From the NCBI GenBank assembly GCA_037144045.1, contig JBAWXN010000001.1, positions 203,752 to 267,751 on the forward strand: 64,000 nt of DNA, read 5' to 3'. Positions 3,219 through 56,610 of the stretch are shown piece after piece; the stretch's first letter is position 1, and each line of letters begins with the position of its first letter. The notes beneath the pieces were generated by a model, which searched no databases, was not told where the DNA came from, and worked only from the letters and a program-made list of their open reading frames with translations. The translations under genes and the position numbers were made by a program. This stretch comes from a bacterium. GTDB lineage: Bacteria > Patescibacteriota > Minisyncoccia > Phycocordibacterales > UBA1006.

Positions 3219-3248
3219 AAAACCCTGCTTTCGCAAGGTTTTTTATTC
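3219..3248 (-). terminator. Putative terminator downstream of rmuC
   Basis: Imperfect hairpin aaccctgc-tttc-gcaaggtt flanked by T-runs on the minus strand. Confidence 0.4.
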
Positions 3249-5169: not shown

Positions 5170-5198
5170 AAAATCCCTCACGGGATTTTTTATTTTTT
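5170..5198. terminator. Bidirectional rho-independent terminator
   Basis: aatccc-tcac-gggatt hairpin with A-run upstream and T-run downstream. Sits between convergent genes. Confidence 0.6.
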
Positions 5199-9431: not shown

Positions 9432-10871
9432 ATGATAGGGCACATGATTGAATCTAACGGAAAAAAATATTATCCAACCATTGGTCTTGAAATTCATGCA
9501 GAACTTGCTACAGAAACCAAGATGTTTTGTGCATGTAAAAATAACCCCGACGAAGAACAACCTAATGTAAATACGTGTCCGGTATGCATGGCGCATCCTG
9601 GAACACTTCCCGTACCCAATAAAAAAGCTATCGAAAGTGTTATTAAAGTTGGGCTTGCAATTGGTGCCAACATTGCAAACTTTTCAGAATTTGATCGTAA
9701 AAATTATTTCTACCCCGATATTCCAAAAGGATATCAGATTTCACAGTATAAATATCCTATTGTTTCCAATGGTAACCTTGCTGGTGTAGACATTACTCGC
9801 ATTCACCTCGAAGAAGACACGGCAAACAGTAAACACGACCGAGGAAATTTCTCGCTCGTGGATTTTAATCGTGCTGGAGTACCACTTATGGAATTAGTTA
9901 CCGAACCCATTATTCATGATGCTGACACAGCCATGAAATTCGCTAAGGAATTGCAGTTATTGTTACGCACATTAGGTGTGGCCCATGCGAATATGGAAAA
10001 AGGTGAAATGCGTGTAGAGGCAAACATTTCAGTATCAGATGTTTTCGAAAACTTTGGAACTAAGGTTGAAGTAAAAAACCTCAATAGTTTTTCTGTAGTT
10101 GGTAAGGCAATTGATTATGAAATTAACCGCATGATTGGATTGTATGAAGCAGGACGTAAAGACGAAATTGTCCAGGAAACTCGTGGTTGGGATGAACAAA
10201 AACAAGCAACCTATTCACAACGCCGTAAAGAAAACAGCAATGATTATCGTTATTTCCCCGATCCTGATATTCCTAAGTTTCACCTCCATGAATTGTTTGA
10301 CTTAGAATCCTTGAAAAAAAACCTGCCCGAATTACCAGACCATAAACGAAACCGTTTTGCATCAAAATACGGCATTAAGGCTGAAGACATTGAGGCGTAT
10401 GTTACTGACCCAGATTTAGGAAATTATTTTGAATCAGTTGCAGAAATACTTGGATCAGGTGATGTACTAAAAACAGCTTCTAACTACATTACCTCAGACT
10501 TACTCGGACTCCTTGCTAAAAATACAGAAGCTAAGCGGCCAAGTATTACTCATTTTGCAAAACTCATCGAGATGAATGCTGATAGTAAGCTTAACTCTCG
10601 AGGAGTAAAAGACATTCTTGCAATGATTGTTATTGCTGACAAAGACCCAGAAGCTATTGCTCAAGAAAAAGGATTGATTCAGCAAAATGATGAAGGCGCG
10701 CTTAAGGCTCTTGCTCAGAAATACGTCGATGCACATCCAAACGTTGTTGCAGAGTACAAAGCTGGTAAAGAAGCGTCACTTATGTTTTTTGTTGGACAGA
10801 TCATGAAAGAAACAAAAGGTTCAGCTAATCCTGCCATGGTTCAGAAAATACTCAAAGACATATTGTTGTAA
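9432..10871 (+). CDS. gatB: Asp/Glu-tRNA amidotransferase subunit B
   Basis: YYPTIGLEIHAELATETKMFCAC, NTCPVCMAHPGTLP and RIHLEEDTANS, with a C-terminal YqeY-like tail. 479 aa. Confidence 0.9.
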   Translation: MIGHMIESNGKKYYPTIGLEIHAELATETKMFCACKNNPDEEQPNVNTCPVCMAHPGTLPVPNKKAIESVIKVGLAIGANIANFSEFDRKNYFYPDIPKGYQISQYKYPIVSNGNLAGVDITRIHLEEDTANSKHDRGNFSLVDFNRAGVPLMELVTEPIIHDADTAMKFAKELQLLLRTLGVAHANMEKGEMRVEANISVSDVFENFGTKVEVKNLNSFSVVGKAIDYEINRMIGLYEAGRKDEIVQETRGWDEQKQATYSQRRKENSNDYRYFPDPDIPKFHLHELFDLESLKKNLPELPDHKRNRFASKYGIKAEDIEAYVTDPDLGNYFESVAEILGSGDVLKTASNYITSDLLGLLAKNTEAKRPSITHFAKLIEMNADSKLNSRGVKDILAMIVIADKDPEAIAQEKGLIQQNDEGALKALAQKYVDAHPNVVAEYKAGKEASLMFFVGQIMKETKGSANPAMVQKILKDILL

Positions 10872-11978: not shown

Positions 11979-13166
11979 ATGAAATTTAATTATAAAAAAC
12001 TCCAAAACCACATCGTAGAACCATTGCCAGCAGTGGACGTTTTGAAGGAGAAAATTATTTTTCATGCGTTCGAAGTTGAGTCAGTAGAAGATTTAGGTAA
12101 TGGTGATTATGAACTCGAAATTAAAGTACTGCCCGATCGTGCATTTGATGCCAAGGATGACCGTGGTATGGCGCGGGAAATTGCAGCACTATTTGATTTA
12201 ACATTGGTTGACCCTGATAGTTACGATGCAGCAGCATCAACTGAGTTGGTATTTTCACTAAATCAAGTTTCAACTCTTCTTGGACGCGTTATTACTACTA
12301 TTAATATTGAAAAGATGTTTAATGCATACCATTATGTATTCAGTATTTCAGGTGACCAGGTATCACTGGCTATACCACCGTGGCGTAGTGATATTGTGCA
12401 CATTTACGATATTGCTGATGAAATTGGTCGTTATTTAGGATACGAAAGTGTTACTCCAGTGCTTCCTCAGTTATCAGCTTCTGTGTCACACGACAAAGAA
12501 TTTCAATCGATTGTTACAAAAAAACAAGAACTTATTTCAAAAGGGTACCACGAGGTAATGACCTACTCATTAACCAAGAAAGGGGATTACCAAGTCGCAA
12601 AAGGTCCTAAAGGAAAAGATTTCTTGCGAACAAATCTCCTTGATGGGATGCGAATCGCATACGCCGTGAACAAGCAAAACGAAGAATTACTTCCTAATGC
12701 TTCAGCAAAGATTTTTGAAATTGGAAAAGTGTTTCTTACAACAGGTGAAGAACTCCATGTTGCATGGATTGATGCGAAAGACGAACATGAAGAAGTGCTC
12801 ACTATAGATGAGACCCTTTCCACGATAGTGGAAAGGGTGGTCACCGAAGGTGACCGGGTGAGGACCAGTACAGAATCGAGATTCCATATGTGGTCTGAGT
12901 ACCCATTCATGACTCGAGACATTGCAGTATGGCTCCCTGAATCAGTTTCAAATAATGAATTAGTTTCAATTATTAAGAAAAATGGAACCGAACTACTCCA
13001 AGGTGAACCGAGACTTTTTGATCAGTTTACTAAAGACGGACGTACTTCATACGCATATCGAATAGTGTTTCAGGCATTCGACCGAACGTTAACCGATAAT
13101 GAAGTTAATCCCATTATGGATATGATTTATTCTGAATGTAAGAGTAATAGTTGGGAAATTAGATAA
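11979..13166 (+). CDS. pheT: Phenylalanine-tRNA ligase beta subunit, strongly reduced (395 aa versus about 800 aa in typical bacteria)
   Basis: Starts 4 nt after pheS. Contains a B5-like region and a C-terminal FDX-ACB-like anticodon-binding segment (AYRIVFQAFDRTLTDNEVNPIMDMIYSECKSNSWEIR). Lacks the N-terminal tRNA-binding and editing-domain length. Confidence 0.7.
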   Translation: MKFNYKKLQNHIVEPLPAVDVLKEKIIFHAFEVESVEDLGNGDYELEIKVLPDRAFDAKDDRGMAREIAALFDLTLVDPDSYDAAASTELVFSLNQVSTLLGRVITTINIEKMFNAYHYVFSISGDQVSLAIPPWRSDIVHIYDIADEIGRYLGYESVTPVLPQLSASVSHDKEFQSIVTKKQELISKGYHEVMTYSLTKKGDYQVAKGPKGKDFLRTNLLDGMRIAYAVNKQNEELLPNASAKIFEIGKVFLTTGEELHVAWIDAKDEHEEVLTIDETLSTIVERVVTEGDRVRTSTESRFHMWSEYPFMTRDIAVWLPESVSNNELVSIIKKNGTELLQGEPRLFDQFTKDGRTSYAYRIVFQAFDRTLTDNEVNPIMDMIYSECKSNSWEIR

Positions 13167-36609: not shown

Positions 36610-36694
36610 AGCAGAATGCTAAGGTGTTGACATAATTTTAATTATAGGCTATTATTGTATTTGTTCATTTTTATAACACAAAATATTCTAAGAA

Positions 36695-37234
36695 ATGGGA
36701 ACACCAAAAGCCCTAAATCCGGACCTGTTAAAAGGCACCGAAGGTACGCTCTTACACGAGGTACTATCTACTACTAACGAAGAAACAGCTGCGTTCTTGC
36801 AGGAGGTTGGCAATGCGCCTACCGATACCGACAAGAAAGTAACCGACATTCTGCCGTTGGAAGCAGCCCTATTCCTGCATGCCAAAACTAATGGTGTTGC
36901 TGCCGAAAAACTTATTGATGATTTCAACACTGAAGTTGAAGCAAAGAAACAGGAAAACGGCAAAGAAATACCTGAGGGCGAGCGCGAGGCATTCTTCGAA
37001 AAACGTAAGCAGGTGAAAGCCGCAGCGCGTAAATTGAAGAAGAAAGCTGAGCTGTTTGCAGAAGTAGCCTGGGGCTCTATCCGCAGCCGCATAGAAGACA
37101 TTGAATCGCTGGAAATTCGTAATGGCGGAGCCATAATTGATGTTACAGCTGCAGAAGGTGAAAAATGCCCGAATTGTGGTAAGGTACACGGGAAAGGTGG
37201 CCTGGTAGAACTACTCGAGTTAGTACTCAGTTAA
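36695..37234 (+). CDS. Orphan acidic protein with a C-terminal CPNCGK zinc-ribbon-like motif and atypical composition
   Basis: 179-aa ORF. Local GC about 47% against about 38-40% in flanking genes. Codon choice enriched in ctg/gcc/ggc/cgc/ccg. Followed by its own strong terminator. The antisense ORF is low-complexity. Confidence 0.45.
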   Translation: MGTPKALNPDLLKGTEGTLLHEVLSTTNEETAAFLQEVGNAPTDTDKKVTDILPLEAALFLHAKTNGVAAEKLIDDFNTEVEAKKQENGKEIPEGEREAFFEKRKQVKAAARKLKKKAELFAEVAWGSIRSRIEDIESLEIRNGGAIIDVTAAEGEKCPNCGKVHGKGGLVELLELVLS

Positions 37235-37262: not shown

Positions 37263-37293
37263 GAGTCTTGCTACCTGCAAGGCTCTTTTTTTG
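37263..37293 (+). terminator. Rho-independent terminator of the atypical orphan gene
   Basis: gagtcttgc-tacc-tgcaaggctc (one mismatch) followed by a T7 run. Confidence 0.6.
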
Positions 37294-37310
37294 GACAATT
37301 TACCAATATA

Positions 37311-37337
37311 AAAAACACCTTTTTGAGGTGTTTTTTA
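37311..37337 (-). terminator. Terminator downstream of the giant GLUG-repeat gene
   Basis: aaaaaacacctttttgaggtgtttttt (palindromic stem cacct/aggtg with A/T runs). Immediately 3' of the stop at 37340 on the minus strand. Confidence 0.6.
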
Positions 37338-37339
37338 TA

Positions 37340-40300
37340 TTACTTACTGATAAGCGCCCACGTTTTAGGACCTACTACCCCATCAGTTTTCAATTTATTT
37401 TGTTTTTGGAATCGTACTACAGCAAGTTTGGTTTTTACCCCAAACAGAGTTGATTCTTTTCCTGGCGAACCAGCACCTGTTTTAGCAATAATAAACCCTT
37501 TCTTGTTTAATGCCTGTTGTAATAATTTTACATCAGCACCCTTCAAACCTTGCTTAAGGGTTCGTTGTACTGTTGTAGTTGGTTGAGTATTTTTTACAGG
37601 GTCATTCACGGGTTGTGAAGACCATGCTTGCCCAACACCTCGATACGAACCTGATGATGAGCCACCGCCTGTAGATGTATCAATCACAGTAAACGGCCCA
37701 ACCATTACTGTATTTGAATCATTATTATTTGCGTCACGACATCCGAAACTAAATGAATACGTACCACCAACCTTGAGCCCTGATACATATGCCGTCTGTT
37801 CAGTATTACTATCAGTTATATCGCTAATATGTAGTTCTGCACTATCACTTACCGACGACTGAATTGGATATGCAAATGGTGTACACACTTCTGAAACAGT
37901 GAACTTGTATGTCGCATTAGCAATCGTTGTCTGCGCTGCAATTGATTTTACCTCGGTAATAATAGGAGCCGTCACGTCAGTTATTTCAAATGTTGTACGC
38001 AAGACAGGATAACTATCTGTCACCGTGCTCCAAATATCTGTGAAATTCCAACTACCTTCACCAGAAGCAAATACTGGCTTCGTTGCGTTGTTGAAGAAAT
38101 AAGCCGTGTCTGGATCTGCGATCGTATTTACCGCAGTACAATCTGAAGCACTTTGATCGTCAACACATCCAAGCGAATTCTTTTCTTCGTCATAATATAC
38201 CTCTCCAAAAACGAGTGTTGCACCCATGTTATTACTTCCCACAACTGAACCCTTGGCATGATCTGCAACCATGGTATTAGCTACAAAAGAATTGTAGATG
38301 TACAGCGACCCTTCATCATTGCGACCAACAAGTCCTCCTGCGTCTCCACCATTTGCGTATGCCGCAACACTTCCTGCTGCATATACCTCAGCGATAAACA
38401 CCGTACCACTGTTACCAGCACCTGACACACCAATGATTCCTCCGACACCACCAGTTGAACCAAGGGTTCCGTTAAAATATGAGTTAGTGATATTCAACGT
38501 ATGATTTCCAATATACGTTGATCCAATTAAACCTCCAACATATCCACCGTTTGCGCCAACGCTTCCTGTCGCATAGTTTTCTGACATTGTATTAATAAAC
38601 TCACCGCTACCATCGCGATAGTTACCAATATACCCGACGAGGCCTCCTGAATAACTTCCTGAACCTACTGATGCAAGTGACCGGTTTGCGGTAATGGTAA
38701 TATATGCGGTTGAATCGTCCCCATAAGTACTGATGTTCTGATACCCAATAAGCCCACCTGCATAGTAACCCCCTGAAGCAATTACACCCTCAACACTATT
38801 GCCATTGACTGTAAAATGGAAACTCTCATCATCATCGTCCATACTATGATACATATAACCAATAAGTCCTCCAGCTGCTGAATCTGTTGCTTCAACTTCA
38901 GCACTTACCCTATTGTTTGCAATAGTAATATTGTTTACATCGTTATTGTAGTAGGTGTATGAATCAATATACCCAATAAGTCCTCCAACATTTTCTGTTC
39001 CGTAAATATTACCACTAGTAACAGTATTACCTGAAACAGTTAAGTTTATAGTTGTGTCATCATCCTGGTCTCCGTCTAACTCAACCTCGCCAATAATTCC
39101 TCCAACATCAGAACCGCCATGAGCGCTGTCACCAGCGACTGTTCCTGTAAATGAGTTATTGGTTAATGAAGTTAAAACACTATATCCTTCCTCGTCTGGG
39201 TATGAATAGAGGTAGCCGACAATACCTCCAACCTTGCTATTTCCAGAAACAACACCACTTGACGAACTATTTGAAATACTTGAACTATGAATCGTTGCAC
39301 CATCAGAGTCCATATAACCAACCAATCCTCCAACATCATTACCTCCCCATCCATAGTTAGGATTGTATAGCCCGTTTACCGCAAGATCACTACGTACATT
39401 TGAAATTGTTGTGTGATATGCATATCCAACAAGTGCCCCTACTTCATAGAATCCTGTAACAGAACCGGTATGCAATGTAACGTTTTTAATAGTGGCTCGA
39501 TCGGTCATCTTGAAAAGACCAACATCACCTTCTTCTGGCAGGTTAATAGTTAAATTACTAATAGTATATCCACGTCCATCAAACACTCCTCGGAAAGTAT
39601 TGTTCCATCCTCCGTTTCCAAGCGCTCGGAAGTTTGGAATTCCCGAACAGTCAATATTTTGAGTTAAATTAAATGTATGTGTATAGGTGTCTGCTTCGGT
39701 ATCCATTGCTTGTAGTTGTGCACAACTACTGATCTCATGTACGGTAGAATTACCAACTGTAAATTGAACTGGGTTAGAGTACTCTCCGTAACCAAGCCAA
39801 TTTTCTGCAGAGATTCTGACATCGTATGTCTGGTCATAATCAAGCTTATTATCGTTATCATCGTATGACAAACTTGTCGTTGTAGCCTCAAGAGCCAGAG
39901 GATTATCCCAATTTGCTGTTGAAAGTTTTACTTGAATGCGATAGCTACTAATTGGAAGTCCGCCATCTGAGAGTGGCACTTCCCACGTAAAGTCAGGATT
40001 TAGGCCATTTACTTGTGCAGTAACATTTTGAGGTTCTGCTGGAGTTGAGATTGCATCTATTGGAATCAGTGTTGGATAATCACCGTCTTCCTGATGCCAA
40101 ACATTTGTAAAATTCCACTGCGTCATCGGAGCTGAAGTTGGTAACAGGAAATAGAATCCTGCGCTCGATGCTCCAGTACATCCATCACCCACTTCGGCAC
40201 CCGAAGCAATACATGAATCGCTTCCATTCGCGGTTGAATCGTAATAATTATTAGTAATCGTTACAGTACTTTGCCTTCGCCCCATAAATGCTCCGTGATT

Positions 40301-42424
40301 ACTTCCACCTGAAACAGTAGTTGCAGCAAAATTGTTGGCAAAAACTACATCGGATCCTCCTTCAGCATATCCTACAAATCCACCAACATCGCCACCCTGG
40401 CCCGTGACATCACCCACTGCATAGTTACGAAGTAAATAAGTACAACAATTTCCTGTTTCTCCAACAAAACCACCGACAGCATAGCTACCCCCATTTACCG
40501 TAGCTCGCGCATAACTATCAGAAATAGTTGTATTTACTGCGTACCCAGTGAATCCTCCAGAAGAAGAAACTCCTCCTGTTACTGTTCCTACGAAACTACT
40601 TTTTGAAACTCCATTCGACGATTGGATAAGTCCAGCAAATCCTCCGACTCGTCCAGCACTTGCGTTTATTGTTCCTGATACGTGAACACCAACAACCGTT
40701 CCATAGATAGTTCCGGCAAGTCCTCCAACATGATCATCACCGCCGGTGACCGTCATATTAGTAAGATTAAAACCATACACAAGAGCACTACCATCAATCT
40801 GAGTAAAAAGTCCTCCCTTACCTGTTGGACCAAGATTGATAGTAATCCCTGAGATAGTATGCCCTCCTCCAACAAATATTCCATCAATACCTTCAATCGG
40901 TATAAATCCAAAATACTGTCCTGGATTTTGAGGATCTTCGTTCCATGTTGCAGTTGCCGAACAATCAATATCATTCCCAAGCGTTACATGTACCCCTTGC
41001 CCAACATTTCCTTGAAGCGACTGAAGCTCTTCACAGGTAGTAACCAAGTAAGGAGTGTTCTCTGACCCATCACCTGCACCCAAGAAACTGTGATCTACAG
41101 TAAATGACGGAATGTTAATTGTATTTGAAAGATTTCCTCCGGCATCACGAACACGAACGGTACAATCTGAATAGGTACCAGTATCGAATCCAAAACTAAT
41201 AGTATTTGAACCAACCGTTGCTGGTACTTCTTCACCACTACATGCACCACCAGTGACGATAGTTCCCGCCTCATCTGTGGTAAATATATAATTTTGAGTA
41301 TATGCACGGGTTGGTGTTGTGATTGCCGTTATTTCTGAAATAACAGGAGCCGTAACATCTGGATCATCATTTACCACACCACCATCAGCGGTGATTGCGC
41401 GCAACGACGGATACTCATCAGTATTTGTTTCCCAGATTGTAGTAAAATCCCATGACGTAAGTGGTGCATTTGCTGCATCGTCTTTAAAATAGTGGATATT
41501 TGTGTTTCCGGCATTTACCCCTTCACACTGACCTATAACAGGTATAATCACCGCTCCATTGTTGTTGTATCCACACATAGTTCGTGTCGATCGGGAAATA
41601 TCAAAAAAGTTATTAGTAAGTCCTGCCGATGGTGTACTTGTTCCGTCTTGGTCATTTCCCCACAGACCTCCAAAGAAGAACGTATTTTGACCAGACAAAA
41701 CTGCTCCCGCATTAAAACTATTAGTGATAATACTTCCTGTTAAGCGCCAACCTGTCAGACCTCCCAGGTGATAAATAGCATCCGTATTTCTTCCGACCTG
41801 CCCGCGATTATATGAATTTATAATACTTGCATAACTCGTCATAAAGCCGGTAATACCTCCAATTTGAGATCCACTAGCAGAGGAAACCTCTCCTGTGTTG
41901 TATGAATTCGTAATAGTAGCATCAGCAAGAAATCCTACAAGACCACCAACATACGAACGCCCCCGAACACTTGCCTCGTTTACGACACGCTCAATTACAG
42001 TAGCTCCGTCAGCAGAAGCCACAACACCTGCAACATAATCACCGGTTGCAGAAACAGATCCAGTAACTCGTACGTCATGAATATGTGCACCGGTAACCTT
42101 ACCAAAAACTCCAACATACTGTGCACCAACATTGGAAATATTTACATCAATCGTATACCCTTGACCATCAAAATCACCTGTGAACGGATCGTTTACAGCG
42201 CCCATAGATAGGAAACTTGTTCCTGAACAATCAATATTATTTGCCAGTTTATATGAAGCCCCTGTATTGAAAGAAATTTCAGTAAGCTGAACACAGTCAG
42301 TAATCATATAAGGATCCCCAATAGTTCCGGCACCTGAACCAGTAAACGCGAACGCATGGCTTGCAGTAACCAAGCTCATTATGAGCAGTGCAATAATTGA
42401 TGCAGTTTTTTTAAAGTAATTCAT
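37340..42424 (-). CDS. Giant (1694 aa) secreted surface protein with many GLUG-motif Gly-rich repeats, an FN3 domain and a C-terminal peptidoglycan-binding domain
   Basis: Signal peptide MNYFKKTASIIALLIMSLVTASHAFA. Tens of GLUG-like repeats (VGGLVGY..., GGLIGY..., VGGFVGY...NSYA.G.V). FN3-like PQNVTAQVNGLNPDFTWEVPLSDGGLPISSYRIQV...YDVRISAENWLGYGEYS. C-terminal LKQGLKGADVKLLQQALNKKGFIIAKTGAGSPGKESTLFGVKTKLAVVRFQKQNKLKTDGVVGPKTWALI (PG_binding_1). Confidence 0.75.
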   Translation of the reverse strand: MNYFKKTASIIALLIMSLVTASHAFAFTGSGAGTIGDPYMITDCVQLTEISFNTGASYKLANNIDCSGTSFLSMGAVNDPFTGDFDGQGYTIDVNISNVGAQYVGVFGKVTGAHIHDVRVTGSVSATGDYVAGVVASADGATVIERVVNEASVRGRSYVGGLVGFLADATITNSYNTGEVSSASGSQIGGITGFMTSYASIINSYNRGQVGRNTDAIYHLGGLTGWRLTGSIITNSFNAGAVLSGQNTFFFGGLWGNDQDGTSTPSAGLTNNFFDISRSTRTMCGYNNNGAVIIPVIGQCEGVNAGNTNIHYFKDDAANAPLTSWDFTTIWETNTDEYPSLRAITADGGVVNDDPDVTAPVISEITAITTPTRAYTQNYIFTTDEAGTIVTGGACSGEEVPATVGSNTISFGFDTGTYSDCTVRVRDAGGNLSNTINIPSFTVDHSFLGAGDGSENTPYLVTTCEELQSLQGNVGQGVHVTLGNDIDCSATATWNEDPQNPGQYFGFIPIEGIDGIFVGGGHTISGITINLGPTGKGGLFTQIDGSALVYGFNLTNMTVTGGDDHVGGLAGTIYGTVVGVHVSGTINASAGRVGGFAGLIQSSNGVSKSSFVGTVTGGVSSSGGFTGYAVNTTISDSYARATVNGGSYAVGGFVGETGNCCTYLLRNYAVGDVTGQGGDVGGFVGYAEGGSDVVFANNFAATTVSGGSNHGAFMGRRQSTVTITNNYYDSTANGSDSCIASGAEVGDGCTGASSAGFYFLLPTSAPMTQWNFTNVWHQEDGDYPTLIPIDAISTPAEPQNVTAQVNGLNPDFTWEVPLSDGGLPISSYRIQVKLSTANWDNPLALEATTTSLSYDDNDNKLDYDQTYDVRISAENWLGYGEYSNPVQFTVGNSTVHEISSCAQLQAMDTEADTYTHTFNLTQNIDCSGIPNFRALGNGGWNNTFRGVFDGRGYTISNLTINLPEEGDVGLFKMTDRATIKNVTLHTGSVTGFYEVGALVGYAYHTTISNVRSDLAVNGLYNPNYGWGGNDVGGLVGYMDSDGATIHSSSISNSSSSGVVSGNSKVGGIVGYLYSYPDEEGYSVLTSLTNNSFTGTVAGDSAHGGSDVGGIIGEVELDGDQDDDTTINLTVSGNTVTSGNIYGTENVGGLIGYIDSYTYYNNDVNNITIANNRVSAEVEATDSAAGGLIGYMYHSMDDDDESFHFTVNGNSVEGVIASGGYYAGGLIGYQNISTYGDDSTAYITITANRSLASVGSGSYSGGLVGYIGNYRDGSGEFINTMSENYATGSVGANGGYVGGLIGSTYIGNHTLNITNSYFNGTLGSTGGVGGIIGVSGAGNSGTVFIAEVYAAGSVAAYANGGDAGGLVGRNDEGSLYIYNSFVANTMVADHAKGSVVGSNNMGATLVFGEVYYDEEKNSLGCVDDQSASDCTAVNTIADPDTAYFFNNATKPVFASGEGSWNFTDIWSTVTDSYPVLRTTFEITDVTAPIITEVKSIAAQTTIANATYKFTVSEVCTPFAYPIQSSVSDSAELHISDITDSNTEQTAYVSGLKVGGTYSFSFGCRDANNNDSNTVMVGPFTVIDTSTGGGSSSGSYRGVGQAWSSQPVNDPVKNTQPTTTVQRTLKQGLKGADVKLLQQALNKKGFIIAKTGAGSPGKESTLFGVKTKLAVVRFQKQNKLKTDGVVGPKTWALISK

Positions 42425-42435
42425 AGATGTAATAA

Positions 42436-42876
42436 TTATTTTTTGACCGGATATACCGTGACACGGTCTGCAGTTACTGTTCCTGGTTCTTGTTCATTAC
42501 CAACAATAGTAATTCGCTGACCTACACGTACCTGAACTTTTTCCTTGCTTGCCTTAGAGGGCGCCCGGTTACTTTTTTGTTTTTGAGTAGATGCCAGTAA
42601 AGTTTTTTTAGCACCTTGGTTAGATGATACCCCGTTAGTAATTTTTGCACCTGTTAATGAAACAGAAATTTTTTGATTTCCATCATCAACTACTGCCGTT
42701 GTACCTGTGATACTCAGTACAATACCAGAAATAATTGTACGGGTTTCATCAGATGCAAAACTTGCACGAGGAGCTATTAAAAAAATGCCCACGATGAGTA
42801 AAAACGTAGACACGAAAAAAACATTGCGGGCCGATTGAATGGTAAATAGAATACTCATAAAAAACAGACAGTCCAC
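42436..42876 (-). CDS. Small membrane-anchored exported protein
   Basis: N-terminal TM helix, then a Ser/Thr-rich beta region. The gene immediately precedes the giant gene on the same strand. Possibly DUF5666-like. Confidence 0.4.
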   Translation of the reverse strand: MDCLFFMSILFTIQSARNVFFVSTFLLIVGIFLIAPRASFASDETRTIISGIVLSITGTTAVVDDGNQKISVSLTGAKITNGVSSNQGAKKTLLASTQKQKSNRAPSKASKEKVQVRVGQRITIVGNEQEPGTVTADRVTVYPVKK

Positions 42877-42946
42877 TTAAATAATAATACTTCTATTGTA
42901 TCAATGAATATTTTTAAATACAAGATAAAAACACCCGAAGGTGCTG

Positions 42947-43069
42947 TTATCGATGCGGATTTTTCTTCATTCGAGCTTGCTTTGCGGCAACCTTGATTGC
43001 AATGCGTTTCTTGGTCTTTTTAGAGTGAGACGCCTTGTTTTTGATTCCTTGATTTAATCGTTTTGCCAT
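42947..43069 (-). CDS. Possible 40-aa lysine-rich basic peptide
   Basis: MAKRLNQGIKNKASHSKKTKKRIAIKVAAKQARMKKNPHR. Too short for the ORF track. The composition is ribosomal-protein-like but no confident family match. Confidence 0.25.
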   Translation of the reverse strand: MAKRLNQGIKNKASHSKKTKKRIAIKVAAKQARMKKNPHR

Positions 43070-47339: not shown

Positions 47340-50300
47340 TTACTGAGCTAAACCATTAGCTCCGCATGACTTATTAATGAGTCCTCTCGTTACAGGTCCT
47401 ACCATTCCGTCTTGGTCAGTTCCTAAATACTTCTGCATGCGCTTGATCGCACCATCAGTGATTTTTCCAAGGATTCCATCAACAGGTCCAGAATTAAATC
47501 CAAGTCGGTTCATATGTCCTTGAAGTATTTTTACTTCTTTAACCATCGCTTTGGTGTACGGATGATACTTACCATTGCGTGCACCTGCTTTTAGATTTTG
47601 AGTAAGGATTTGATCGGCAGGACAGGTATCTAGGGAAGGCGTATTTGGTATTGCCGTTGCAGATGCTGTGTTTTGTGCAACCGGTGTCCAAGGTCTTCCT
47701 TGACCCGACGAAATTGTTGGTTGAGTAGTAGCTACCCCTGGCACATATTCAGGTTCGGTTGGCGCAAATCTAAATACTGGATAATTTGCGGTTGCCTGCC
47801 AAATCGTATCAAAATCCCAATCAGTCATCGGGGCACTAGTATTATTTGCCTTGAAATAATTAACACCTGATACCTTGGTTGGTTGAGGATTTGCATAGCT
47901 ACCATCTACCCCAATACTTGCAGCACTATACCAATAGTTACCCGTTGCGGCATAATCTAACATATTACTTGAGCCGGCATATCCACCAATAACAGCACCG
48001 CCAGTTGTCGGTTCACTTACCGTAAACGAATCATAAGTTCCTTTAGGATCAGAACCCCAATCGGCACCCGTTATTCCTCCAGTATAGTTTCCTGTACTGT
48101 GAACAGTACCTGATGAATATACCCGTTCAATGGTTCCATAGTTAATCCCCGTAATACCACCCACATAACTATCTCCCTCGATGGTTGTTGCCGCGTAACT
48201 ATCGTGAATCCAACCATTGCCCTGGTTTGCACCAGCAATTCCACCAGCAATTCCACCACCCGCTATGGTACCTGTAAAATACGACCGTCTTATTTCTTTA
48301 TTATTGTTACCAACCAATCCTCCCACATGACTATTTCCTGTCACGTCTGCGGTTGAATAGGATTCAATGATCGTACTTCCTCCACTGCGAAGCGCATCAG
48401 GAAATGGTCCTGGTACTACTCGAGTATTCCAAGTGTTGATGTAAGAAGTATTTTCTGGAGTCATTGGATACGGTGCCATACCTGGACCATATTTAGTCAT
48501 GCCACGATACGGTAAATAATCTGCTGACTGACTATATTCGCCCATACCTTGATAGGTTGCGTGTTTATAGAGCGCATCGTTGTACAGTACAAAACTTCGT
48601 TCCATACCCTCTACAGGTGCAATGTATGGGAATTCAACAGACAACTGGTCTCCATAACGCATTACCACAAATTGATCATCCGAATCATTTAGGAGCGGCG
48701 TCACGTCACCATATTTGGTAAATTTTCCGTATTGGTTTTTAAATATTCCTCTTGGTAGCGGACTTGCTTTTGAATAATCGTGATCATAGAAATGACTGCG
48801 ATCAATCTCGCTGAATCCATAGTATCCCAAGTCAACCGATTCTGGTTGGTAGGTATTCGCCGTGAAAGGAACTTGGGCTGAAGTATCTACGGCAAAATAG
48901 TTTGCATTGAATGTATCAAAGGCAACTTTTACACGATAATCATTCGTCAAGAATTTCCCCGTCAAATCAACGGTTCGCAATCGCGCTGTTCCATCTGAAC
49001 CTAATTGATTTTTGTTATAAATTTCAACCCAGTTTCCGTTTGCATCTTTTACTTGGATTGATCGCGCTGAGTTTCCTGGATATTGTGCACTGGCTGCGTA
49101 ATCACGCGCACCACGGATCACTAATTGAATTGAATTAGCTTCTGACAAATCACCAAAATCTAGCACGAAACTTTTCTTGAGATTTGCCGGGTTATAATTA
49201 CCGCCTTGATTTGTAAAGCTCCACTGATCGTCATATGCCTTGAGTGCATCGGTACAATTGGTACCCTTTTCGTCAACACATGATACCAATTGATGGGTAG
49301 GTGTGTCACTTACCGTACGCAATCCATCAACACCCGCAGTACTTGTAAGCGGTTCTACTACTGAATATCCTGGTGCATGATCAAATGTCATCAATGCTAA
49401 TTTATCATAATACACGGTTTCGTTATATTCCTCGGTAATCTTCATGGAATATTTACCGTCTTTCGGTGCAAGATTATTCGCATCAATTGTCGCCAAGTCT
49501 ATTCCACTTAAGTCCTTAGGGAGTAATCCTCCTACGTCATTCGTATACACATATTTTGATCCGTTCCAGGTATAGACCAATGGACTTGAATTGGGAAAAT
49601 TATTTGCATCTACATGGGATCCAACCAATCCTCCAACATTTTCTTGTCCCTGTACGGTACCACTACTGCTTACATTAGTGAGTGTACCTGAAAGCCCTCC
49701 AGCGAATGCACCTATATTTTTTCCGGCAGCAGTTATATTCACATTTTCAAGCTCGAGGTTCTTTACCTCAGCACCTGCGGCAATCGTTCTGAAAAGCCCG
49801 ACATAGTATCCGTCCAACTCACTGTTATTTACTCCACGATTAATATACAGACCGCTGATTTTATGATTTTGCCCATCGAAAACACCCGTAAAACTCTGAT
49901 GATTAAATCCTGAACTAATATTATTCCCATTAACAGCAATTTCACCAAGTGGCCTGAACCCCTTGCCACTGTTCCAATTAATAGTATCCGAACAATCAAT
50001 ATCACTTGCTAATGCATAATACTTATCAAGGGTTGAAACATCATTTCCAACTGCCTGAAGTGCCACACAACTTGAAATCATATACGGATCAAGTTCTGTT
50101 CCTGTTCCAGTAAGAGTGATTTCGTTTGAAGCAGGTCCGTATTTCATAACCTTAGCCTTGTTTTGTAACCCTGTGAATCCAACATAGAGGGTGTCGTTCG
50201 GTGCAACAACAAGTGAGACAAAAGCGCCGGAACGCTCTGAAAAATCTGCGGCGCCTACAGAAATCCATCCATCACCGTTATAAGTCACGACATTTACCTT

Positions 50301-51251
50301 GTTATTGTTATTACTATTCGTATAGGCAAGATATAAATTATTTTCTGAATCAATAGCAAGTGACGTGAAATGTACATCAAATTCGGTAAATCCTGGTGTG
50401 CTGACACTTTCCCAGGCGGTACCATTAAAATGCATTACCGTTGCCTTGTGGCTGTTTCCACCGTCTTCATATGCCAGGTATAATTCTCCGTTTGGTGCAA
50501 ACGCAAGAGAGTTAAAATCCGCCGAACCCGCAGAAAAACCAGGGTCACCAACGTTCTCCCAGATCGTACCGTTGAATCTCATAACAGTTGCCTTGTAATC
50601 TCGGGTAACGTCCTTGATCGCAACATAAGGTACATTCGCGGAACTGATGGCAAGCGTAATCGTTTCGACTTCTCCATCAGAAAAACCTGCCGTTCCTACG
50701 AGTTCCCAGGCCGTACCATTAAATTTCATCACGGTTGCCTTGTTGCTATTTGAAGCGTCTCGGTAGGCAATATAAGGAGTCGCATCGGGAGCAATCTTAA
50801 GAGAAGTATACTCTGCAGCGCCACCAGAAAAACCTGCCGTTCCTACAGCTTCCCACGTGGTACCGTTAAATTTCATCACGGTTGCTTTTTCGCTGTTTGA
50901 AGCATCCGCAAAACCAATATACGGGGTACCGTTTGGAGCAATCGCAAGCGACGTATATGCAGTACCACCACCTGAGAAGCCAGCCGTGCCAACCGCCTCC
51001 CACGAAGTACCGTCGTATTTCATCACGGTTGCCTTGTTCCCCGCATTACCGTCATTGAACCCGATGTATTGAGTACCATCAGGAGCCACCGCCATAGATG
51101 TGAAATAACTGCTGTTTATCGATATACTTTGATCACCCAGCAATCCCCAGGCGTCAACTGCAAATACATGATTCGCACTAAAAATAATTCCGACCACGAG
51201 TAATGGTAATAAAAAAGCAATCCGCATCACACGGCGATTTAATAGGTTCAT
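47340..51251 (-). CDS. Giant (1303 aa) secreted surface protein with seven N-terminal propeller-like repeats (about 49 aa each), a GLUG-like Gly-rich region and a C-terminal peptidoglycan-binding domain
   Basis: Signal peptide MNLLNRRVMRIAFLLPLLVVGIIFSANHVFA. Repeats of W..VGTAGFSGG..Y.SLAIAPNGTPYIGF.D.SN..KATVMKFNGT. NVGGLVGSH and GGLVGNNN stretches. C-terminal ILTQNLKAGARNGKYHPYTKAMVKEVKILQGHMNRLGFNSGPVDGILGKITDGAIKRMQKYLG. Confidence 0.75.
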   Translation of the reverse strand: MNLLNRRVMRIAFLLPLLVVGIIFSANHVFAVDAWGLLGDQSISINSSYFTSMAVAPDGTQYIGFNDGNAGNKATVMKYDGTSWEAVGTAGFSGGGTAYTSLAIAPNGTPYIGFADASNSEKATVMKFNGTTWEAVGTAGFSGGAAEYTSLKIAPDATPYIAYRDASNSNKATVMKFNGTAWELVGTAGFSDGEVETITLAISSANVPYVAIKDVTRDYKATVMRFNGTIWENVGDPGFSAGSADFNSLAFAPNGELYLAYEDGGNSHKATVMHFNGTAWESVSTPGFTEFDVHFTSLAIDSENNLYLAYTNSNNNNKVNVVTYNGDGWISVGAADFSERSGAFVSLVVAPNDTLYVGFTGLQNKAKVMKYGPASNEITLTGTGTELDPYMISSCVALQAVGNDVSTLDKYYALASDIDCSDTINWNSGKGFRPLGEIAVNGNNISSGFNHQSFTGVFDGQNHKISGLYINRGVNNSELDGYYVGLFRTIAAGAEVKNLELENVNITAAGKNIGAFAGGLSGTLTNVSSSGTVQGQENVGGLVGSHVDANNFPNSSPLVYTWNGSKYVYTNDVGGLLPKDLSGIDLATIDANNLAPKDGKYSMKITEEYNETVYYDKLALMTFDHAPGYSVVEPLTSTAGVDGLRTVSDTPTHQLVSCVDEKGTNCTDALKAYDDQWSFTNQGGNYNPANLKKSFVLDFGDLSEANSIQLVIRGARDYAASAQYPGNSARSIQVKDANGNWVEIYNKNQLGSDGTARLRTVDLTGKFLTNDYRVKVAFDTFNANYFAVDTSAQVPFTANTYQPESVDLGYYGFSEIDRSHFYDHDYSKASPLPRGIFKNQYGKFTKYGDVTPLLNDSDDQFVVMRYGDQLSVEFPYIAPVEGMERSFVLYNDALYKHATYQGMGEYSQSADYLPYRGMTKYGPGMAPYPMTPENTSYINTWNTRVVPGPFPDALRSGGSTIIESYSTADVTGNSHVGGLVGNNNKEIRRSYFTGTIAGGGIAGGIAGANQGNGWIHDSYAATTIEGDSYVGGITGINYGTIERVYSSGTVHSTGNYTGGITGADWGSDPKGTYDSFTVSEPTTGGAVIGGYAGSSNMLDYAATGNYWYSAASIGVDGSYANPQPTKVSGVNYFKANNTSAPMTDWDFDTIWQATANYPVFRFAPTEPEYVPGVATTQPTISSGQGRPWTPVAQNTASATAIPNTPSLDTCPADQILTQNLKAGARNGKYHPYTKAMVKEVKILQGHMNRLGFNSGPVDGILGKITDGAIKRMQKYLGTDQDGMVGPVTRGLINKSCGANGLAQ
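50126..51155 (-). repeat. Intragenic tandem repeat of about 147 bp in roughly 7 copies, encoding the propeller-like blades
   Basis: Periodic protein repeat KATVM.FNGT.WE.VG..GFS. The antisense ORFs 50365-50598 and 50857-51072 show the same periodicity. Confidence 0.6.
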
Positions 51252-54759: not shown

Positions 54760-56610
54760 TTAAATATGTAGTCTTTTATTAATTTCATCTACCAATTGAT
54801 CTAGCAGCTGATAATCATTAGATAAGGTAGTTCGTGTTGGCTTGAAATCATTTGAGATGTTCATTTTTAATTTTTCTAAAAACTCAATTGAAAATTTATT
54901 ATTTTGCTGTAAATATATTTTGATTTGATCAATCAATGGACTAGTTTCAATTAAGGAAAAGTTGAGTACGTCAGCTCCAAATTCTTTTTTATATAAAGTT
55001 TTAAACTTACTTTCAATAAAAGGTTTTCGAAGGAAGTCTTCAATTGTAGCCCCTGCTGAAATTTGTCCTATTAAATCCCGAATAGTGACGACATTATTTG
55101 TATTAAAAACTCCTCCAATACTGAGTATTTTGTCTCTATATCCAATTCCTTCCTTGTCATCGTCAGTAAGAACCATAACATCAATCTCGTCACTGTTTAA
55201 TTTTGTAGCAACTTGAACAATATTACTACCTGTTCCATTAGTAATTCCGAAATCAAAACTTTTTAAAGTAAAGATTTTTTGTAATATTATTTTATCGCTT
55301 GCCCCTTCAACTAAAATTCTGTATGGTGAAAACAGGTCACGATATACACTTAAACCAAACGCTATATCAAGTACCTCGTCACCAGTAATATCATCTGTCG
55401 GCCCGACCAGTATTTTTTCTGTTATAGCTGATTTATTTTTTTTAATTATAATATTTCGTTCTTTATTTTTTCTGTCAACGAGAAAAGGAGAATGTGTAGA
55501 TACAAACAAATAGTTAGTTTTACCAATTTCTAATAACTCATCTCGCAAGTCTCTAATTCCTGAAGGATGTAGATGTGTTTCTGGTTCGTCTATCAAGATA
55601 AGATTGTTCTTTTTTCCCATTTTTTTGGCTTCAATAGATAAGGATAGGATAAGAGAAATAAACTGCTTAAAACCTTCGCTGCGTGATGTCATTTTATGGT
55701 AATTGTGCTCATTGTTTTTACCGTCATCTTTTATAGACACTACAATTTTTTTAGTGTCTGAAATCTCTATGTCAAAATTAATATCATGATCCCAGACATT
55801 TTTTACATAATTTGTTGCATTGTCAGATAGTCTTCCCATCAGCTTTCTTCGCAAATTATCATTTGAAGTTTCATCGATTTTCTCCTTTATTTGCTTTGAT
55901 CCAATAAAGCCCGATAATGCAAATATGTTCCTCAGTGGAATATTAGAAGAAGGCTTTTCTCTGAATTCTGTTAAATCGACAGACCCTAGTAAGTATTTAT
56001 CGGAAGGTTTCCAAAAAGAAACTTGGGGCTCGAACTCTTTAATTGAATTAACAATTGCCTCATTAAAATTCTCTATAACAAAAGCCTCATCTACTGGACT
56101 ATATGTTTCATCAGCGTCCGGTTTCTTCTTAATATCAAAACTATCCACGGTCTTACTCTCCGTTCCCACTGTTATGGTTTTTTGTATTTTTTTAGCAACT
56201 AATCCCTTTTTAACATTATTAATATCATATTCGTAGGATTCAGAGAAAAACTTTGTATCTTTTTGAAGATATACATTTTTGCAAATATTCTTGATATTAA
56301 AATCAAGAATATTGTTATCGTCACCAATTTCCGCTCGCACAAAATCCAGCCACGACTCCTCTTTATCAAAATCAAGATAAAACCATAAATCAATAGGGTT
56401 GCCCTCCTCGTCTTTTTGGTTATGAAGAGAGTGGTAATCAAATTCTTCAGTAGGTGTATTAAGGTATGATATTGCATCAAGAATATTACTTTTTCCAGAC
56501 TCATTTACACCAAGAAATACTGTTGTGTAGCTTGGTCCATATTTTTTAATGTCGAGTTCAATTTTCTGAATTGATTTGTAATCCTCAATTATTATTTTTA
56601 TTAATTTCAT
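54760..56610 (-). CDS. OLD-family nuclease: N-terminal ABC-type ATPase (AAA_15/21-like) plus C-terminal TOPRIM domain
   Basis: Walker A GVNESGKSNILDAI. Signature-like TSRSEGFKQFISL. Walker B/H-loop LILIDEPETHLHP. TOPRIM Glu motif ILVEGASDKIIL and DxD motif VMVLTDDDKEG. The gene is extremely AT-rich, roughly 28-30% GC. Confidence 0.8.
   Translation of the reverse strand: MKLIKIIIEDYKSIQKIELDIKKYGPSYTTVFLGVNESGKSNILDAISYLNTPTEEFDYHSLHNQKDEEGNPIDLWFYLDFDKEESWLDFVRAEIGDDNNILDFNIKNICKNVYLQKDTKFFSESYEYDINNVKKGLVAKKIQKTITVGTESKTVDSFDIKKKPDADETYSPVDEAFVIENFNEAIVNSIKEFEPQVSFWKPSDKYLLGSVDLTEFREKPSSNIPLRNIFALSGFIGSKQIKEKIDETSNDNLRRKLMGRLSDNATNYVKNVWDHDINFDIEISDTKKIVVSIKDDGKNNEHNYHKMTSRSEGFKQFISLILSLSIEAKKMGKKNNLILIDEPETHLHPSGIRDLRDELLEIGKTNYLFVSTHSPFLVDRKNKERNIIIKKNKSAITEKILVGPTDDITGDEVLDIAFGLSVYRDLFSPYRILVEGASDKIILQKIFTLKSFDFGITNGTGSNIVQVATKLNSDEIDVMVLTDDDKEGIGYRDKILSIGGVFNTNNVVTIRDLIGQISAGATIEDFLRKPFIESKFKTLYKKEFGADVLNFSLIETSPLIDQIKIYLQQNNKFSIEFLEKLKMNISNDFKPTRTTLSNDYQLLDQLVDEINKRLHI

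Follow-up and report, generated by a model that had tools for sequence, protein, structure and literature searches.

The window analysed here, a stretch of DNA of 64,000 nucleotides, carries a gene for a giant protein and a small gene directly upstream of it which we regard, with modest confidence, as a two-gene surface unit. The giant would be a non-enzymatic, wall-tethered fibre or adhesin and the small protein its co-evolving accessory partner. The giant is read as an adhesin or fibre because binding of an external ligand is its most likely function, and it may thereby serve adhesion and host attachment. It is a fairly ordinary representative of a surface-protein family that is widespread, already annotated and little understood, and GenBank names it "peptidoglycan-binding protein". 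The genome looks Patescibacteria-type (Paceibacteria/Nomurabacteria-like) by sequence, its GatB matching Ca. Nomurabacteria / Paceibacterota sequences at 67-68%. How ultrasmall Patescibacteria recognise and hold other cells is little understood apart from the type IV pili in Saccharibacteria, and type IV pili are the attachment devices shown by experiment in cultivated Patescibacteria (10.1101/2024.11.25.624915).

Domain layout of the giant protein

The sequence-only reading had placed a single gene of 1694 aa at 37340..42424 of the reverse strand, and this extent was confirmed, with an ATG start. Glug, fn3 and PG_binding_1 were each recovered above their Pfam cut-offs. From the N- to the C-terminus the layout is beta-helix, Ig-like, beta-helix, FN3, long beta-helix, Ig-like, linker and PG_binding_1 (Table 1). 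Without its basic C-terminal tail the giant is acidic (pI 4.3), and cysteines are paired in each GLUG module. The N-terminus, MNYFKKTASIIALLIMSLVTASHAFA followed by FTGSG, combines, when judged by eye, a basic n-region with a hydrophobic core and also has an AxA site. The junction, AFA before F[ST]G.G.GT, is kept in six orthologues and the N-terminal end is conserved in all of them, in agreement with the signal peptide proposed earlier. Sequence inspection found no HEXXH, LPXTG or transmembrane segment anywhere in the giant. Pfam gave no SLH or other S-layer signature, and Pfam and NCBIfam together gave no catalytic domain, protease included, and no TPS, RHS, toxin or immunity module.

Table 1. 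Features of the two-gene unit and its flanks, in window coordinates and in the direction of transcription
Feature	Position	Strand	Details
Terminator-like hairpin upstream of the unit	42930..42945	-	terminator scan; fold -13.5 kcal/mol, z -3.8
Promoter-like region preceding the partner gene (predicted)	42881..42904	-	extended -10 TGATACAAT at 42895-42903, read from sequence
Partner gene	42436..42858	-	140 aa; N-terminal hydrophobic helix, then predicted OB-fold
Signal peptide of the giant (predicted)	42347..42424	-	residues 1-26, cleavage after HAFA; sequence features
GLUG module 1 (predicted beta-helix)	41375..42346	-	residues 27-350; N-cap, C-cap, two Cys pairs
Ig-like beta-sandwich spacer 1 (predicted)	41039..41374	-	residues 351-462; AF2 strands pLDDT 60-76
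GLUG module 2 (predicted beta-helix)	40049..41038	-	residues 463-792
Fibronectin type III domain	39755..40048	-	residues 793-890; Pfam fn3
GLUG module 3 (putative beta-helix)	38030..39754	-	residues 891-1465; own-repeat HMM, BLASTP
Ig-like beta-sandwich spacer 2 (putative)	37691..38029	-	residues 1466-1578; homology to spacer 1
Gly/Ser/Pro/Thr-rich basic linker	37547..37690	-	residues 1579-1626; pI 9.7
C-terminal PG_binding_1 domain	37343..37546	-	residues 1627-1694; pI 10.5
Intrinsic-terminator-like hairpin after the giant	37304..37342	-	17-bp, flanking A and U runs; overlaps stop codon

The Glug family (PF07581) scored 44.8 bits against a cut-off of 20.5 (E 1.1e-11) in four stretches, of which the best, residues 155-181, lies in module 1, and an HMM made from the giant's own repeats counted 19. 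GLUG repeats are thus present as first described, but the "dozens" of the sequence-only reading were too many. They are grouped in three discrete modules, each with an N-terminal cap motif, G.G...PY.I..C..L, and a C-terminal one, W[DN]FT.[IV]W......YP.L. Structure prediction, suggested earlier as a check on the repeat region, returned a beta-helix for modules 1 and 2, which are modelled as capped right-handed beta-helices. The AF2 model of module 1 has a pLDDT of about 80-90 across residues 27-215, and the C-terminal part of the module (about residues 305-375) is poorly predicted (pLDDT <50). Module 3 has 11 coils that bear the motif, each about 31-42 aa in length, with acidic insertions; it is similar to modules 1 and 2 in BLASTP (E 3e-11 and 1e-8) and would likewise be a long beta-helix.

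The predicted beta-helix fold is superposable on solved members of the GLUG / Peptidase_M26_N group. A profile of the giant-family alignment retrieved 3N6Z (E 2.2e-18) and 6XJB, 7UVL and 7UVK (E 1-2e-16) from the PDB. Such beta-helix relatives surfaced only via profile search or fold comparison, a search of the PDB with the single sequence having returned FN3 and PG-binding relatives only. Similarly, BLAST of the whole giant against itself gave no off-diagonal matches, but comparison of module with module did reveal the similarity. Tandem Repeats Finder detected no repeats at the DNA level, and a recent duplication or an assembly artefact was rejected because the repeats are old and visible at the protein level only.

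The two Ig-like spacers of ~112 aa, absent from the sequence-only reading, share 34% identity and, scanned by themselves, gave no Pfam match even at E <= 10. Pfam fn3 at residues 797-888 scored 29.2 bits against a cut-off of 25, and this domain matches the FN3 domains of titin and NCAM both by sequence and by Foldseek. The linker is the least conserved segment of the giant (18-38% identity among orthologues). The C-terminal wall-binding domain claimed earlier is clearly present: PG_binding_1 (PF01471) scored 54.2 bits at residues 1629-1691 (cut-off 23; E 1.7e-14), and 59.6 bits when the C-terminus was scanned by itself. Its PDB sequence matches (3BKH, 9XPS, 5NM7, 7RUM) are domains with which phage endolysins and a lytic transglycosylase bind the cell wall. 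The last 68 residues match the three-helix domain of phiKZ gp144 (3BKH) and others, but where the endolysins and transglycosylases carry a hydrolase the giant carries a 1600-residue, apparently non-enzymatic rod. A cell wall is expected in this bacterium because the window also encodes peptidoglycan-related proteins.

The partner gene and the two-gene unit

The partner gene ends 11 nt upstream of the giant and most likely starts at the ATG at 42858 (140 aa, as in GenBank) rather than at the GTG at 42876. The small upstream gene of the sequence-only reading exists, but its start was most likely misplaced at 42876 and the description "membrane-anchored" is doubtful in view of an AxA-like site. 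The N-terminus contains a hydrophobic signal/anchor helix at residues 3-28 with the site ASFA before SD, and an AxA-type cleavage site is found in most partner orthologues. This may be a cleaved signal peptide rather than a membrane anchor, and the protein is probably secreted. In the predicted structure, residues 40-75 and 115-136, interrupted by a disordered basic loop (80-105), form a closed barrel of five beta-strands that superposes on OB-fold proteins.

DUF5666 (PF18914) matched the partner below threshold (13.8 bits against a cut-off of 27) and three of five partner orthologues weakly (best E 0.002), and the partner-family profile retrieved genuine DUF5666 proteins with several repeats (E 5e-7 to 4e-4). 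The partner is thus a distant relative of DUF5666, not a formal member. Its own family is tiny: of 1.84 billion cluster representatives, five matched at E < 1e-10. There is also a contrast in charge: six of the seven partners are basic and all giants are acidic (pI 4.0-4.5).

A homologous small gene lies directly upstream of the giant's orthologue, on the same strand and with gaps of -4 to 18 nt, in all seven orthologous loci (the window and L002, L003, L004, L005, L010 and L011). This agrees with the earlier suggestion of a two-gene unit. No homologue of the partner was found upstream of the paralogous GLUG/PG_binding_1 genes in the related loci examined. The two genes are bracketed by terminator-like hairpins and would be co-transcribed. 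The terminator ascribed to the giant was recovered as a U-run hairpin of -18.8 kcal/mol (z = -6.3; 0 of 200 shuffles equally stable), which could act in both directions, and the neighbouring gene beyond it is convergent. The upstream hairpin would insulate the unit from an MFS gene and a tiny basic ORF; NCBIfam gave no match for this ORF or for those of 179 and 305 aa. The promoter-like region has no good -35 and was not reported by the consensus scan; TGnTAYAAT is conserved ahead of the partner genes of L004, L005, L010 and L011. A phage or prophage origin of the unit was rejected, the flanks being housekeeping genes in conserved synteny.

Relatives and divergence

The GLUG architecture had been called typical of episymbionts, which does not hold: the 1065 homologues of the giant are spread over Bacteroidota, Firmicutes, archaea and others, and their anchors include T9SS, SLH and TPS. 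PG_binding_1 serves as the anchor in seven of the best 120 of these 1065. GLUG motif-containing proteins annotated in many bacteria and archaea, for instance Saccharicrinis, Caproicibacter, Methanolobus and Methanimicrococcus, have the repeat family, the multi-module giant format and an extracellular location in common with the giant, and adhesion is suspected for them. They differ in their anchors, namely the T9SS C-terminal domain PF18962, SLH, LPXTA sortase signals, TPS and Flg_new, and the DUF5666-like partner is confined to the giant's small orthologue group.

Close relatives include the Gram-positive M26 IgA1 metalloproteases (S. pneumoniae ZmpA/IgA1P, 6XJA/6XJB/7JGJ; G. haemolysans, 7UVK), in which the N-terminal Peptidase_M26_N/GLUG beta-helix resembles the giant's modules; the helix of the pneumococcal enzyme is the only relative that has been characterised. 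Module 1 has a weak ZmpA-like NCBIfam match at residues 53-290, and residues 861-1011 a sub-threshold Pfam match to Peptidase_M26_N. An identity as an M26 protease was nevertheless rejected, since the giant has no metalloprotease middle or C-terminal domain, no HEXXH, no Peptidase_M26_C or G5 by Pfam and no LPXTG, and NCBIfam ZmpA scored 19.1 bits where the cut-off is 3000. It carries three beta-helices in tandem rather than one and non-covalent PG_binding_1 anchoring in place of sortase. In the IgA1 protease the N-terminal beta-helix is non-catalytic, binding the IgA1 Fab and gating the active site (PMC7695701), and the GLUG motif has an established function only in IgA1 proteases (PMC9723798); no functional studies beyond the IgA1 protease were found in the literature on GLUG and DUF5666.

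The solved profile relative BACOVA_03286 of Bacteroides ovatus (3N6Z), a structural-genomics solenoid labelled "putative immunoglobulin A1 protease", is unlike the giant in having a single module and no Ig/FN3 spacers or PG_binding_1, and it stems from a diderm gut bacterium. The beta-helix adhesin PfbA of S. pneumoniae (4MR0/3ZPP) and the autotransporter passenger Vag8 (7AKV) show likeness at the level of fold only (9-14% identity), with another repeat family and other anchoring. The giant surface proteins of CPR bacteria, for instance Vampirococcus lugosii, belong to a similar type of organism and are very large and secreted with adhesion-type domains; these are WD40, PKD, integrin and DUF11, and no protein with GLUG and PG_binding_1 is described there (PMC8080830). 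They have been proposed as host-recognition devices (PMC8080830).

Sequence comparison shows that the unit is diversifying rapidly, through substitutions and through gain or loss of modules, and that the giant changes much faster than the genes around it. In the syntenic relative L004 the flanking genes are 75-94% identical, whereas the giant is 45% and the partner 33% identical; module 1 and Ig-like spacer 1 are missing from this giant, and module 1 is absent from the orthologues P0005 and P0006. The N-terminal half of the giant is 66-75% identical in a more distant genome, compared with the 45%-identical allele of the closest syntenic genome.

Function and alternative explanations

According to the favoured reading, the giant would be exported via Sec with removal of its signal peptide, and the basic PG_binding_1 domain and linker would tether it, without a covalent bond, to the peptidoglycan of the cell itself. 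An extracellular location is favoured by the signal peptide and by the paired cysteines of every module. The acidic remainder may project outward as a segmented rod of roughly 25-30 nm. By homology to the N-terminal beta-helix of the IgA1 protease, its modules would act as non-catalytic binding surfaces for an external ligand, e.g. another cell's surface or a polymer. The small basic partner with its predicted OB-fold would be secreted alongside as an accessory in assembly, anchoring or ligand binding, a role suggested by the linkage of the genes, and would co-evolve with the giant.

Alternatively, and rather unlikely in our view, paralogous wall-tethered GLUG proteins form a fibrous coat, S-layer-like or a spacer layer, which protects the cell or sets its surface properties without any specific ligand. 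The window does encode a second giant with GLUG and PG_binding_1 (47340-51251) and a third PG_binding_1 protein, related loci hold two to three such GLUG/PG_binding_1 paralogues each, the giant's rod is acidic throughout, and the Vampirococcus giants have been linked to a fibrous surface (PMC8080830). Against a coat stand the lack of any Pfam S-layer signature and the dedicated co-evolving partner, which accompanies this orthologue group and not the paralogues. Furthermore, conservation among three orthologues is highest in the N-terminal, distal modules (67-85%, compared with 33-56% in the proximal parts), which suggests a specific distal function.

If the giant is instead an adhesin or fibre, one may speculate, with low confidence, that partner and giant constitute a cassette by which Patescibacteria recognise their hosts, one that is swappable, diversifies fast and occupies a conserved chromosomal slot between the MFS gene and an HhH-GPD gene. 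The distal GLUG modules would set the recognised surface, the partner would be a co-evolving specificity or assembly factor, and whole alleles or modules would be exchanged between lineages. Should the unit be a recognition device, its modules, PG-binding tail and partner are concrete, expressible candidates for binding assays, the hypervariable slot could act as a marker of host specificity at the level of strains, and the widespread, uncharacterised GLUG motif gains a first functional handle.

In a more radical variant of the cassette the PG_binding_1 tail grips the wall of the host and not the cell's own. Such a reversed topology, with the tail on host or prey peptidoglycan and the giant held on the producer by an uncleaved partner anchor or by its N-terminal modules, is improbable. 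It would suit the giant's lack of another anchor (transmembrane segment or LPXTG), the single long helix in which AF2 places an 18-residue hydrophobic stretch of the partner, the pairing of a basic partner with an acidic giant, and the episymbiotic habit of cultivated Patescibacteria (10.1101/2024.11.25.624915). The AxA-type site of most partner orthologues speaks against it, nothing points to a host, and the occurrence of PG_binding_1 on three proteins in the window alone fits a generic anchor to the cell's own wall.

Very improbable is an enzyme, in which one or more beta-helix modules would bear a lyase, hydrolase or depolymerase site for host or environmental polysaccharide and PG_binding_1 would keep it at the wall. 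PG_binding_1 is indeed usually found with wall hydrolases. Yet Pfam and NCBIfam detected no enzymatic family, and the giant showed neither a family-level match to nor the conserved catalytic residues of the enzymatic beta-helix families (PL1/PL6/PL9, GH28, GH87, GH110, tailspike depolymerases). The homologous helix of the IgA1 protease is non-catalytic, as noted above, and three tandem modules with spacers resemble the layout of an adhesin rather than that of an enzyme.

A stalk for contact-dependent delivery of a polymorphic toxin, as in the homologues P0044, P0078, P0084 and P0117, which combine GLUG with TPS (PF05860, filamentous-haemagglutinin type) or RHS, is effectively ruled out by the giant's domain content, as it has none of these modules, ends in a wall-binding domain and is followed, past the terminator, by a convergent gene. 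A scan of genome contigs gave only four distant matches, of 30-34% identity.

Architecture and family of the giant protein

The giant is a single ATG-initiated reading frame of 1694 aa in the ORF list, and an identical protein is found in GenBank (MEI8223741.1, 'MAG: peptidoglycan-binding protein [bacterium]', on a 273,932-bp contig). The sequence-only reading had described a GLUG protein with an FN3 domain and a C-terminal wall anchor, and at the level of architecture this interpretation is sound. Pfam places all three domains above their cut-offs: Glug (44.8 bits, cut-off 20.5), fn3 (residues 797-888; 29.2 bits, cut-off 25) and, well above its threshold, the PG_binding_1 domain on whose presence that reading had been staked (residues 1629-1691; 54.2 bits, cut-off 23). 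Peptidase_M26_N gave a sub-threshold match (residues 861-1011), and NCBIfam yielded weak hints alone, to SleB-type PG-binding and ZmpA. At the N-terminus, MNYFKKTASIIALLIMSLVTASHAFA/FTGSG follows the n/h/c plan typical of Sec signal peptides, and the junction AFA/F[ST]G.G.GT is conserved in six orthologues. Glycine makes up 14% of the protein, with Thr, Ser, Val and Asn also abundant; the linker (pI 9.7) and PG_binding_1 (pI 10.5) are basic within an otherwise acidic mature form (pI 4.3). A motif search of the whole protein found neither HEXXH nor LPXTG, and no hydrophobic segment beyond the signal peptide.

The three-module organisation of the giant is new relative to the earlier reading; its boundaries were drawn by module-against-module BLAST and motif searches. 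Every GLUG module begins with an N-cap, G.G...PY.I..C..L...IDCS, ends with a C-cap, W[DN]FT.[IV]W......YP.L, and carries paired cysteines, and the modules are paralogous to one another (E 5e-14, 3e-11 and 1e-8). Pfam gave no match for either spacer; the two are 34% identical to each other. With an HMM trained on the giant's own repeats, 19 GLUG-type repeats are detected, spaced by 27-30 residues in modules 1-2 and by 31-42 in module 3, whose coils are longer owing to acidic insertions. No tandem repeats were found in the gene at the DNA level, which indicates ancient repeats rather than an artefact of assembly.

Positions of the giant, its parts and other features of the window
Feature	Window position	Strand	Giant residues
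Giant gene	37340-42424	-	
Signal peptide			1-26
GLUG module 1			27-350
Beta-sandwich spacer 1			351-462
GLUG module 2			463-792
FN3			793-890
GLUG module 3			891-1465
Beta-sandwich spacer 2			1466-1578
Gly/Ser/Pro/Thr linker			1579-1626
PG_binding_1			1627-1694
Hairpin downstream of unit	37304-37342		
Partner, ORF list (146 aa)	42436-42876	-	
Partner, GenBank start (P0125, 140 aa)	42436-42858	-	
Extended -10 element	42895-42903		
Hairpin upstream of unit	42930-42945		
Tiny basic ORF	42970-43066	-	
Second giant (1303 aa)	47340-51251	-	
365-aa ORF	5190-6287	-	
GatB	9432-10871		
PheT-like ORF (395 aa)	11979-13166	+	
179-aa ORF	36695-37234	+	
Hairpin of 179-aa ORF	37263-37285		
ORF antisense to 179-aa ORF	36688-37134		
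ATPase (616 aa)	54760-56610	-	

The structure prediction proposed for the repeat region was carried out with AlphaFold2 on residues 27-890, using an alignment of 11 sequences (mean pLDDT 75.7; module 2 mostly >90). Both modelled modules, 1 and 2, adopt a regular short-strand beta-helix pattern, and spacer 1 and FN3 are beta-sandwiches. The top Foldseek match in the PDB was 3N6Z (BACOVA_03286, 'putative IgA1 protease'), described as a solenoid related to GLUG repeats (PMC4021314), followed by the M26 IgA1 proteases 7UVL, 6XJB, 7UVK and 6XJA and then by FN3 domains. A profile made from the aligned orthologues, used without structure, recovered 3N6Z (E 2e-18) and IgA1 proteases (~1e-16). The agreement of both searches places the modules firmly within the GLUG/M26_N beta-helix family, and their demonstrated homology to the N-terminal helix of IgA1 proteases is a further gain of this analysis. 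The giant adds a new member to the GLUG family, which is known and widely annotated although its function is obscure; elsewhere the motif is described as 'of unknown function', with a suspected role in adhesion (PMC9723798).

Partner gene and divergence of the unit

The claim of a two-gene unit is borne out, since at every locus recovered the orthologous giant is immediately preceded by a homologous small gene (130-156 aa). The distance is 11 nt in the window, 9 nt in L002 and L003, and 18, 12, 6 and -4 nt in L004, L005, L010 and L011, respectively; in L011 the downstream ORF is truncated, with 61% identity to the giant's N-terminus. Homology of the partners was confirmed by alignment and hhalign (99% probability). 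The family is very small, with 6 clusters in a search of 5.8 billion proteins and 5 representatives at E < 1e-10 among 1.84 billion. Its distant profile matches are bona fide multi-repeat DUF5666 proteins, and the window's own partner scores 13.8 bits against DUF5666 in Pfam, below the cut-off of 27. Paralogous GLUG/PG_binding_1 genes have no such partner upstream. The partner had been regarded as membrane-anchored; an AxA-type site after the hydrophobic stretch in most orthologues (VSA/E, ASFA/S) makes a cleaved signal peptide more likely. All giants are acidic (pI 4.0-4.5), whereas basic values (pI 9.2-10.8) are found for six of the seven partners.

Terminator-like hairpins lie upstream (-13.5 kcal/mol, z -3.8) and downstream of the unit (-18.8 kcal/mol, z -6.3), the latter agreeing with the terminator previously assigned to the giant gene. 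An extended -10 element, TGATACAAT, precedes the partner, with similar elements in other loci. From the bracketing hairpins, this element and the tiny intergenic gap we infer co-transcription. A perfect TATAAT stands only 7-8 nt before the partner ATG in L002 (~495-513), L003 (~7583-7601) and L010 (~3224-3242), suggestive of leaderless transcripts; in the window, L004, L005 and L011 the extended -10 element is instead 30-50 nt upstream.

L004 is syntenic with the window: in both, one flank of the unit has MFS, GDSL, META, GIY-YIG, YjdM and VF530 genes, and the opposite flank has HhH-GPD and ABC genes. Identities are 94% for ABC, 92% for MFS, 84% for HhH-GPD, 83% for GDSL, 80% for the 179-aa ORF and 75% for META, against 45% for the giant and 33% for the partner. 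The L004 giant (1264 aa), like P0006, lacks module 1 and spacer 1. In L011, MFS is 96% identical, the partner 59% and the giant's N-terminus 61%. L010 has the opposite pattern, with META at 50% and the giant at 66% overall (module 1, 75%). Against the orthologues P0002-P0004, identity is 70-75% in module 1, 72-85% in spacer 1 and 67-69% in module 2 of the distal part, and 46-48% in FN3 and 49-61% in module 3 of the proximal part. PG_binding_1 is 33-35% identical to that of P0002 and P0003, 76% to that of P0005, and absent from P0004.

As the flanks are far more alike than the giant and its partner, the unit is a hypervariable cassette, possibly recombining, in a conserved slot. Exposed surface proteins typically diverge in this way under diversifying selection, which may be acting here. 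The discordance between L004 and L010 points to replacement or recombination of the cassette, or else to highly uneven rates of evolution. Partner and giant co-vary between loci; the earlier reading is extended by this OB-fold protein, strictly linked to the giant and diverging with it in a hypervariable slot. Two overlapping ORFs of 1156 aa and 564 aa, the latter with PG_binding_1, make up the orthologous giant of L010 (3642-8766); a frameshift, pseudogenisation or an error in sequencing could explain the split.

Proposed wall anchoring and function

Solved structures related to the giant's C-terminal domain (3BKH, 9XPS, 5NM7, 7RUM) come from phage endolysins and a lytic transglycosylase, in which they are the wall-binding domains. 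Two further ORFs in the window carry PG_binding_1. The 365-aa ORF has a C-terminal domain of this type and weak matches to peptidoglycan hydrolases and SleB. The second giant has GLUG, Peptidase_M26_N-like and C-terminal PG_binding_1 matches, ~30% identity to the 1694-aa giant in module caps and anchor, and no DUF5666-like partner upstream; its L004 orthologue (62% identity) lacks the first ~380 residues. With two or three GLUG and/or PG_binding_1 giants in each related locus, PG_binding_1 looks like a generic C-terminal wall anchor in this lineage. Only 7 of the giant's 120 best homologues use it; others bear T9SS C-terminal domains, SLH, TPS or other modules, and sortase signals anchor some GLUG homologues (PMC3617157). 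This variety indicates that the GLUG rod is portable cargo on whichever anchor suits the envelope.

Given its domain content, beta-helix family, conserved partner and rapid divergence, we lean towards the giant being an adhesin or fibre with an accessory partner. It would be exported by Sec with cleavage of the signal peptide, its basic C-terminus would be tethered non-covalently to the cell's own peptidoglycan, and the acidic segmented rod would project outward by roughly 25-30 nm (~30 helix rungs at ~0.48 nm plus three ~4-nm sandwich domains). The helix faces may bind a ligand, by analogy with IgA1 protease, and the secreted OB-fold partner may play an accessory role. Such a rod could alternatively form a non-specific structural coat, which we consider unlikely. 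Reversed topology, with the PG-binding tail gripping a host wall, is quite improbable; the lineage's repeated use of the domain fits an anchor in the cell's own wall. An enzymatic beta-helix is very doubtful. The giant shares its beta-helix family with M26 IgA1 proteases, but identity as an M26 protease was rejected as all defining features of these enzymes are lacking; recognisable catalytic domains are absent, and the beta-helix of the pneumococcal IgA1 protease NTD (residues 781-1070) is itself non-catalytic, binding substrate Fab and gating the active site (PMC7695701). Toxin delivery by a protein of this domain content is hardly credible.

Host attachment by an episymbiont is a reasonable inference for the giant. 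The architecture had been called typical of episymbionts, which does not hold, as GLUG proteins are not specific to them. One account (10.1101/2024.11.25.624915) describes all cultivated Patescibacteria as episymbionts, with type IV pili as the experimentally shown attachment devices, and giant surface proteins of Vampirococcus are at the stage of proposed host-recognition mediators (PMC8080830).

Organism and neighbouring genes

GatB of the window has metagenomic relatives of up to 96% identity and best named relatives in Candidatus Nomurabacteria and Paceibacterota (67-68%); the giant's best GTDB-genome match is a 'Patescibacteria group bacterium' at 30% identity only. Together with a short PheT, these matches make a Patescibacteria (Paceibacteria-like) origin likely. 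The PheT-like ORF matches just the central and C-terminal regions of bacterial PheT, consistent with a reduced-genome lineage.

Between the MFS and partner genes lies a tiny, very basic ORF, MAKRLNQGIKNKASHSKKTKKRIAIKVAAKQARMKKNPHR, followed by a terminator-like hairpin. It is identical (32/32 aa) in L004 and L011 though neighbouring genes differ, has no NCBIfam match and does not figure among the genes of L001 in its public annotation. The 179-aa ORF, convergent with the giant gene, has no family match and a terminator-like hairpin of its own; the long ORF antisense to it is probably spurious. The 616-aa protein is an AAA_15/AAA_21 ATPase that also carries an OLD-like TOPRIM nuclease domain; it resembles OLD- or Gabija-type defence nucleases, and its gene lies where the window has its lowest GC content (0.36 at 54-58 kb).
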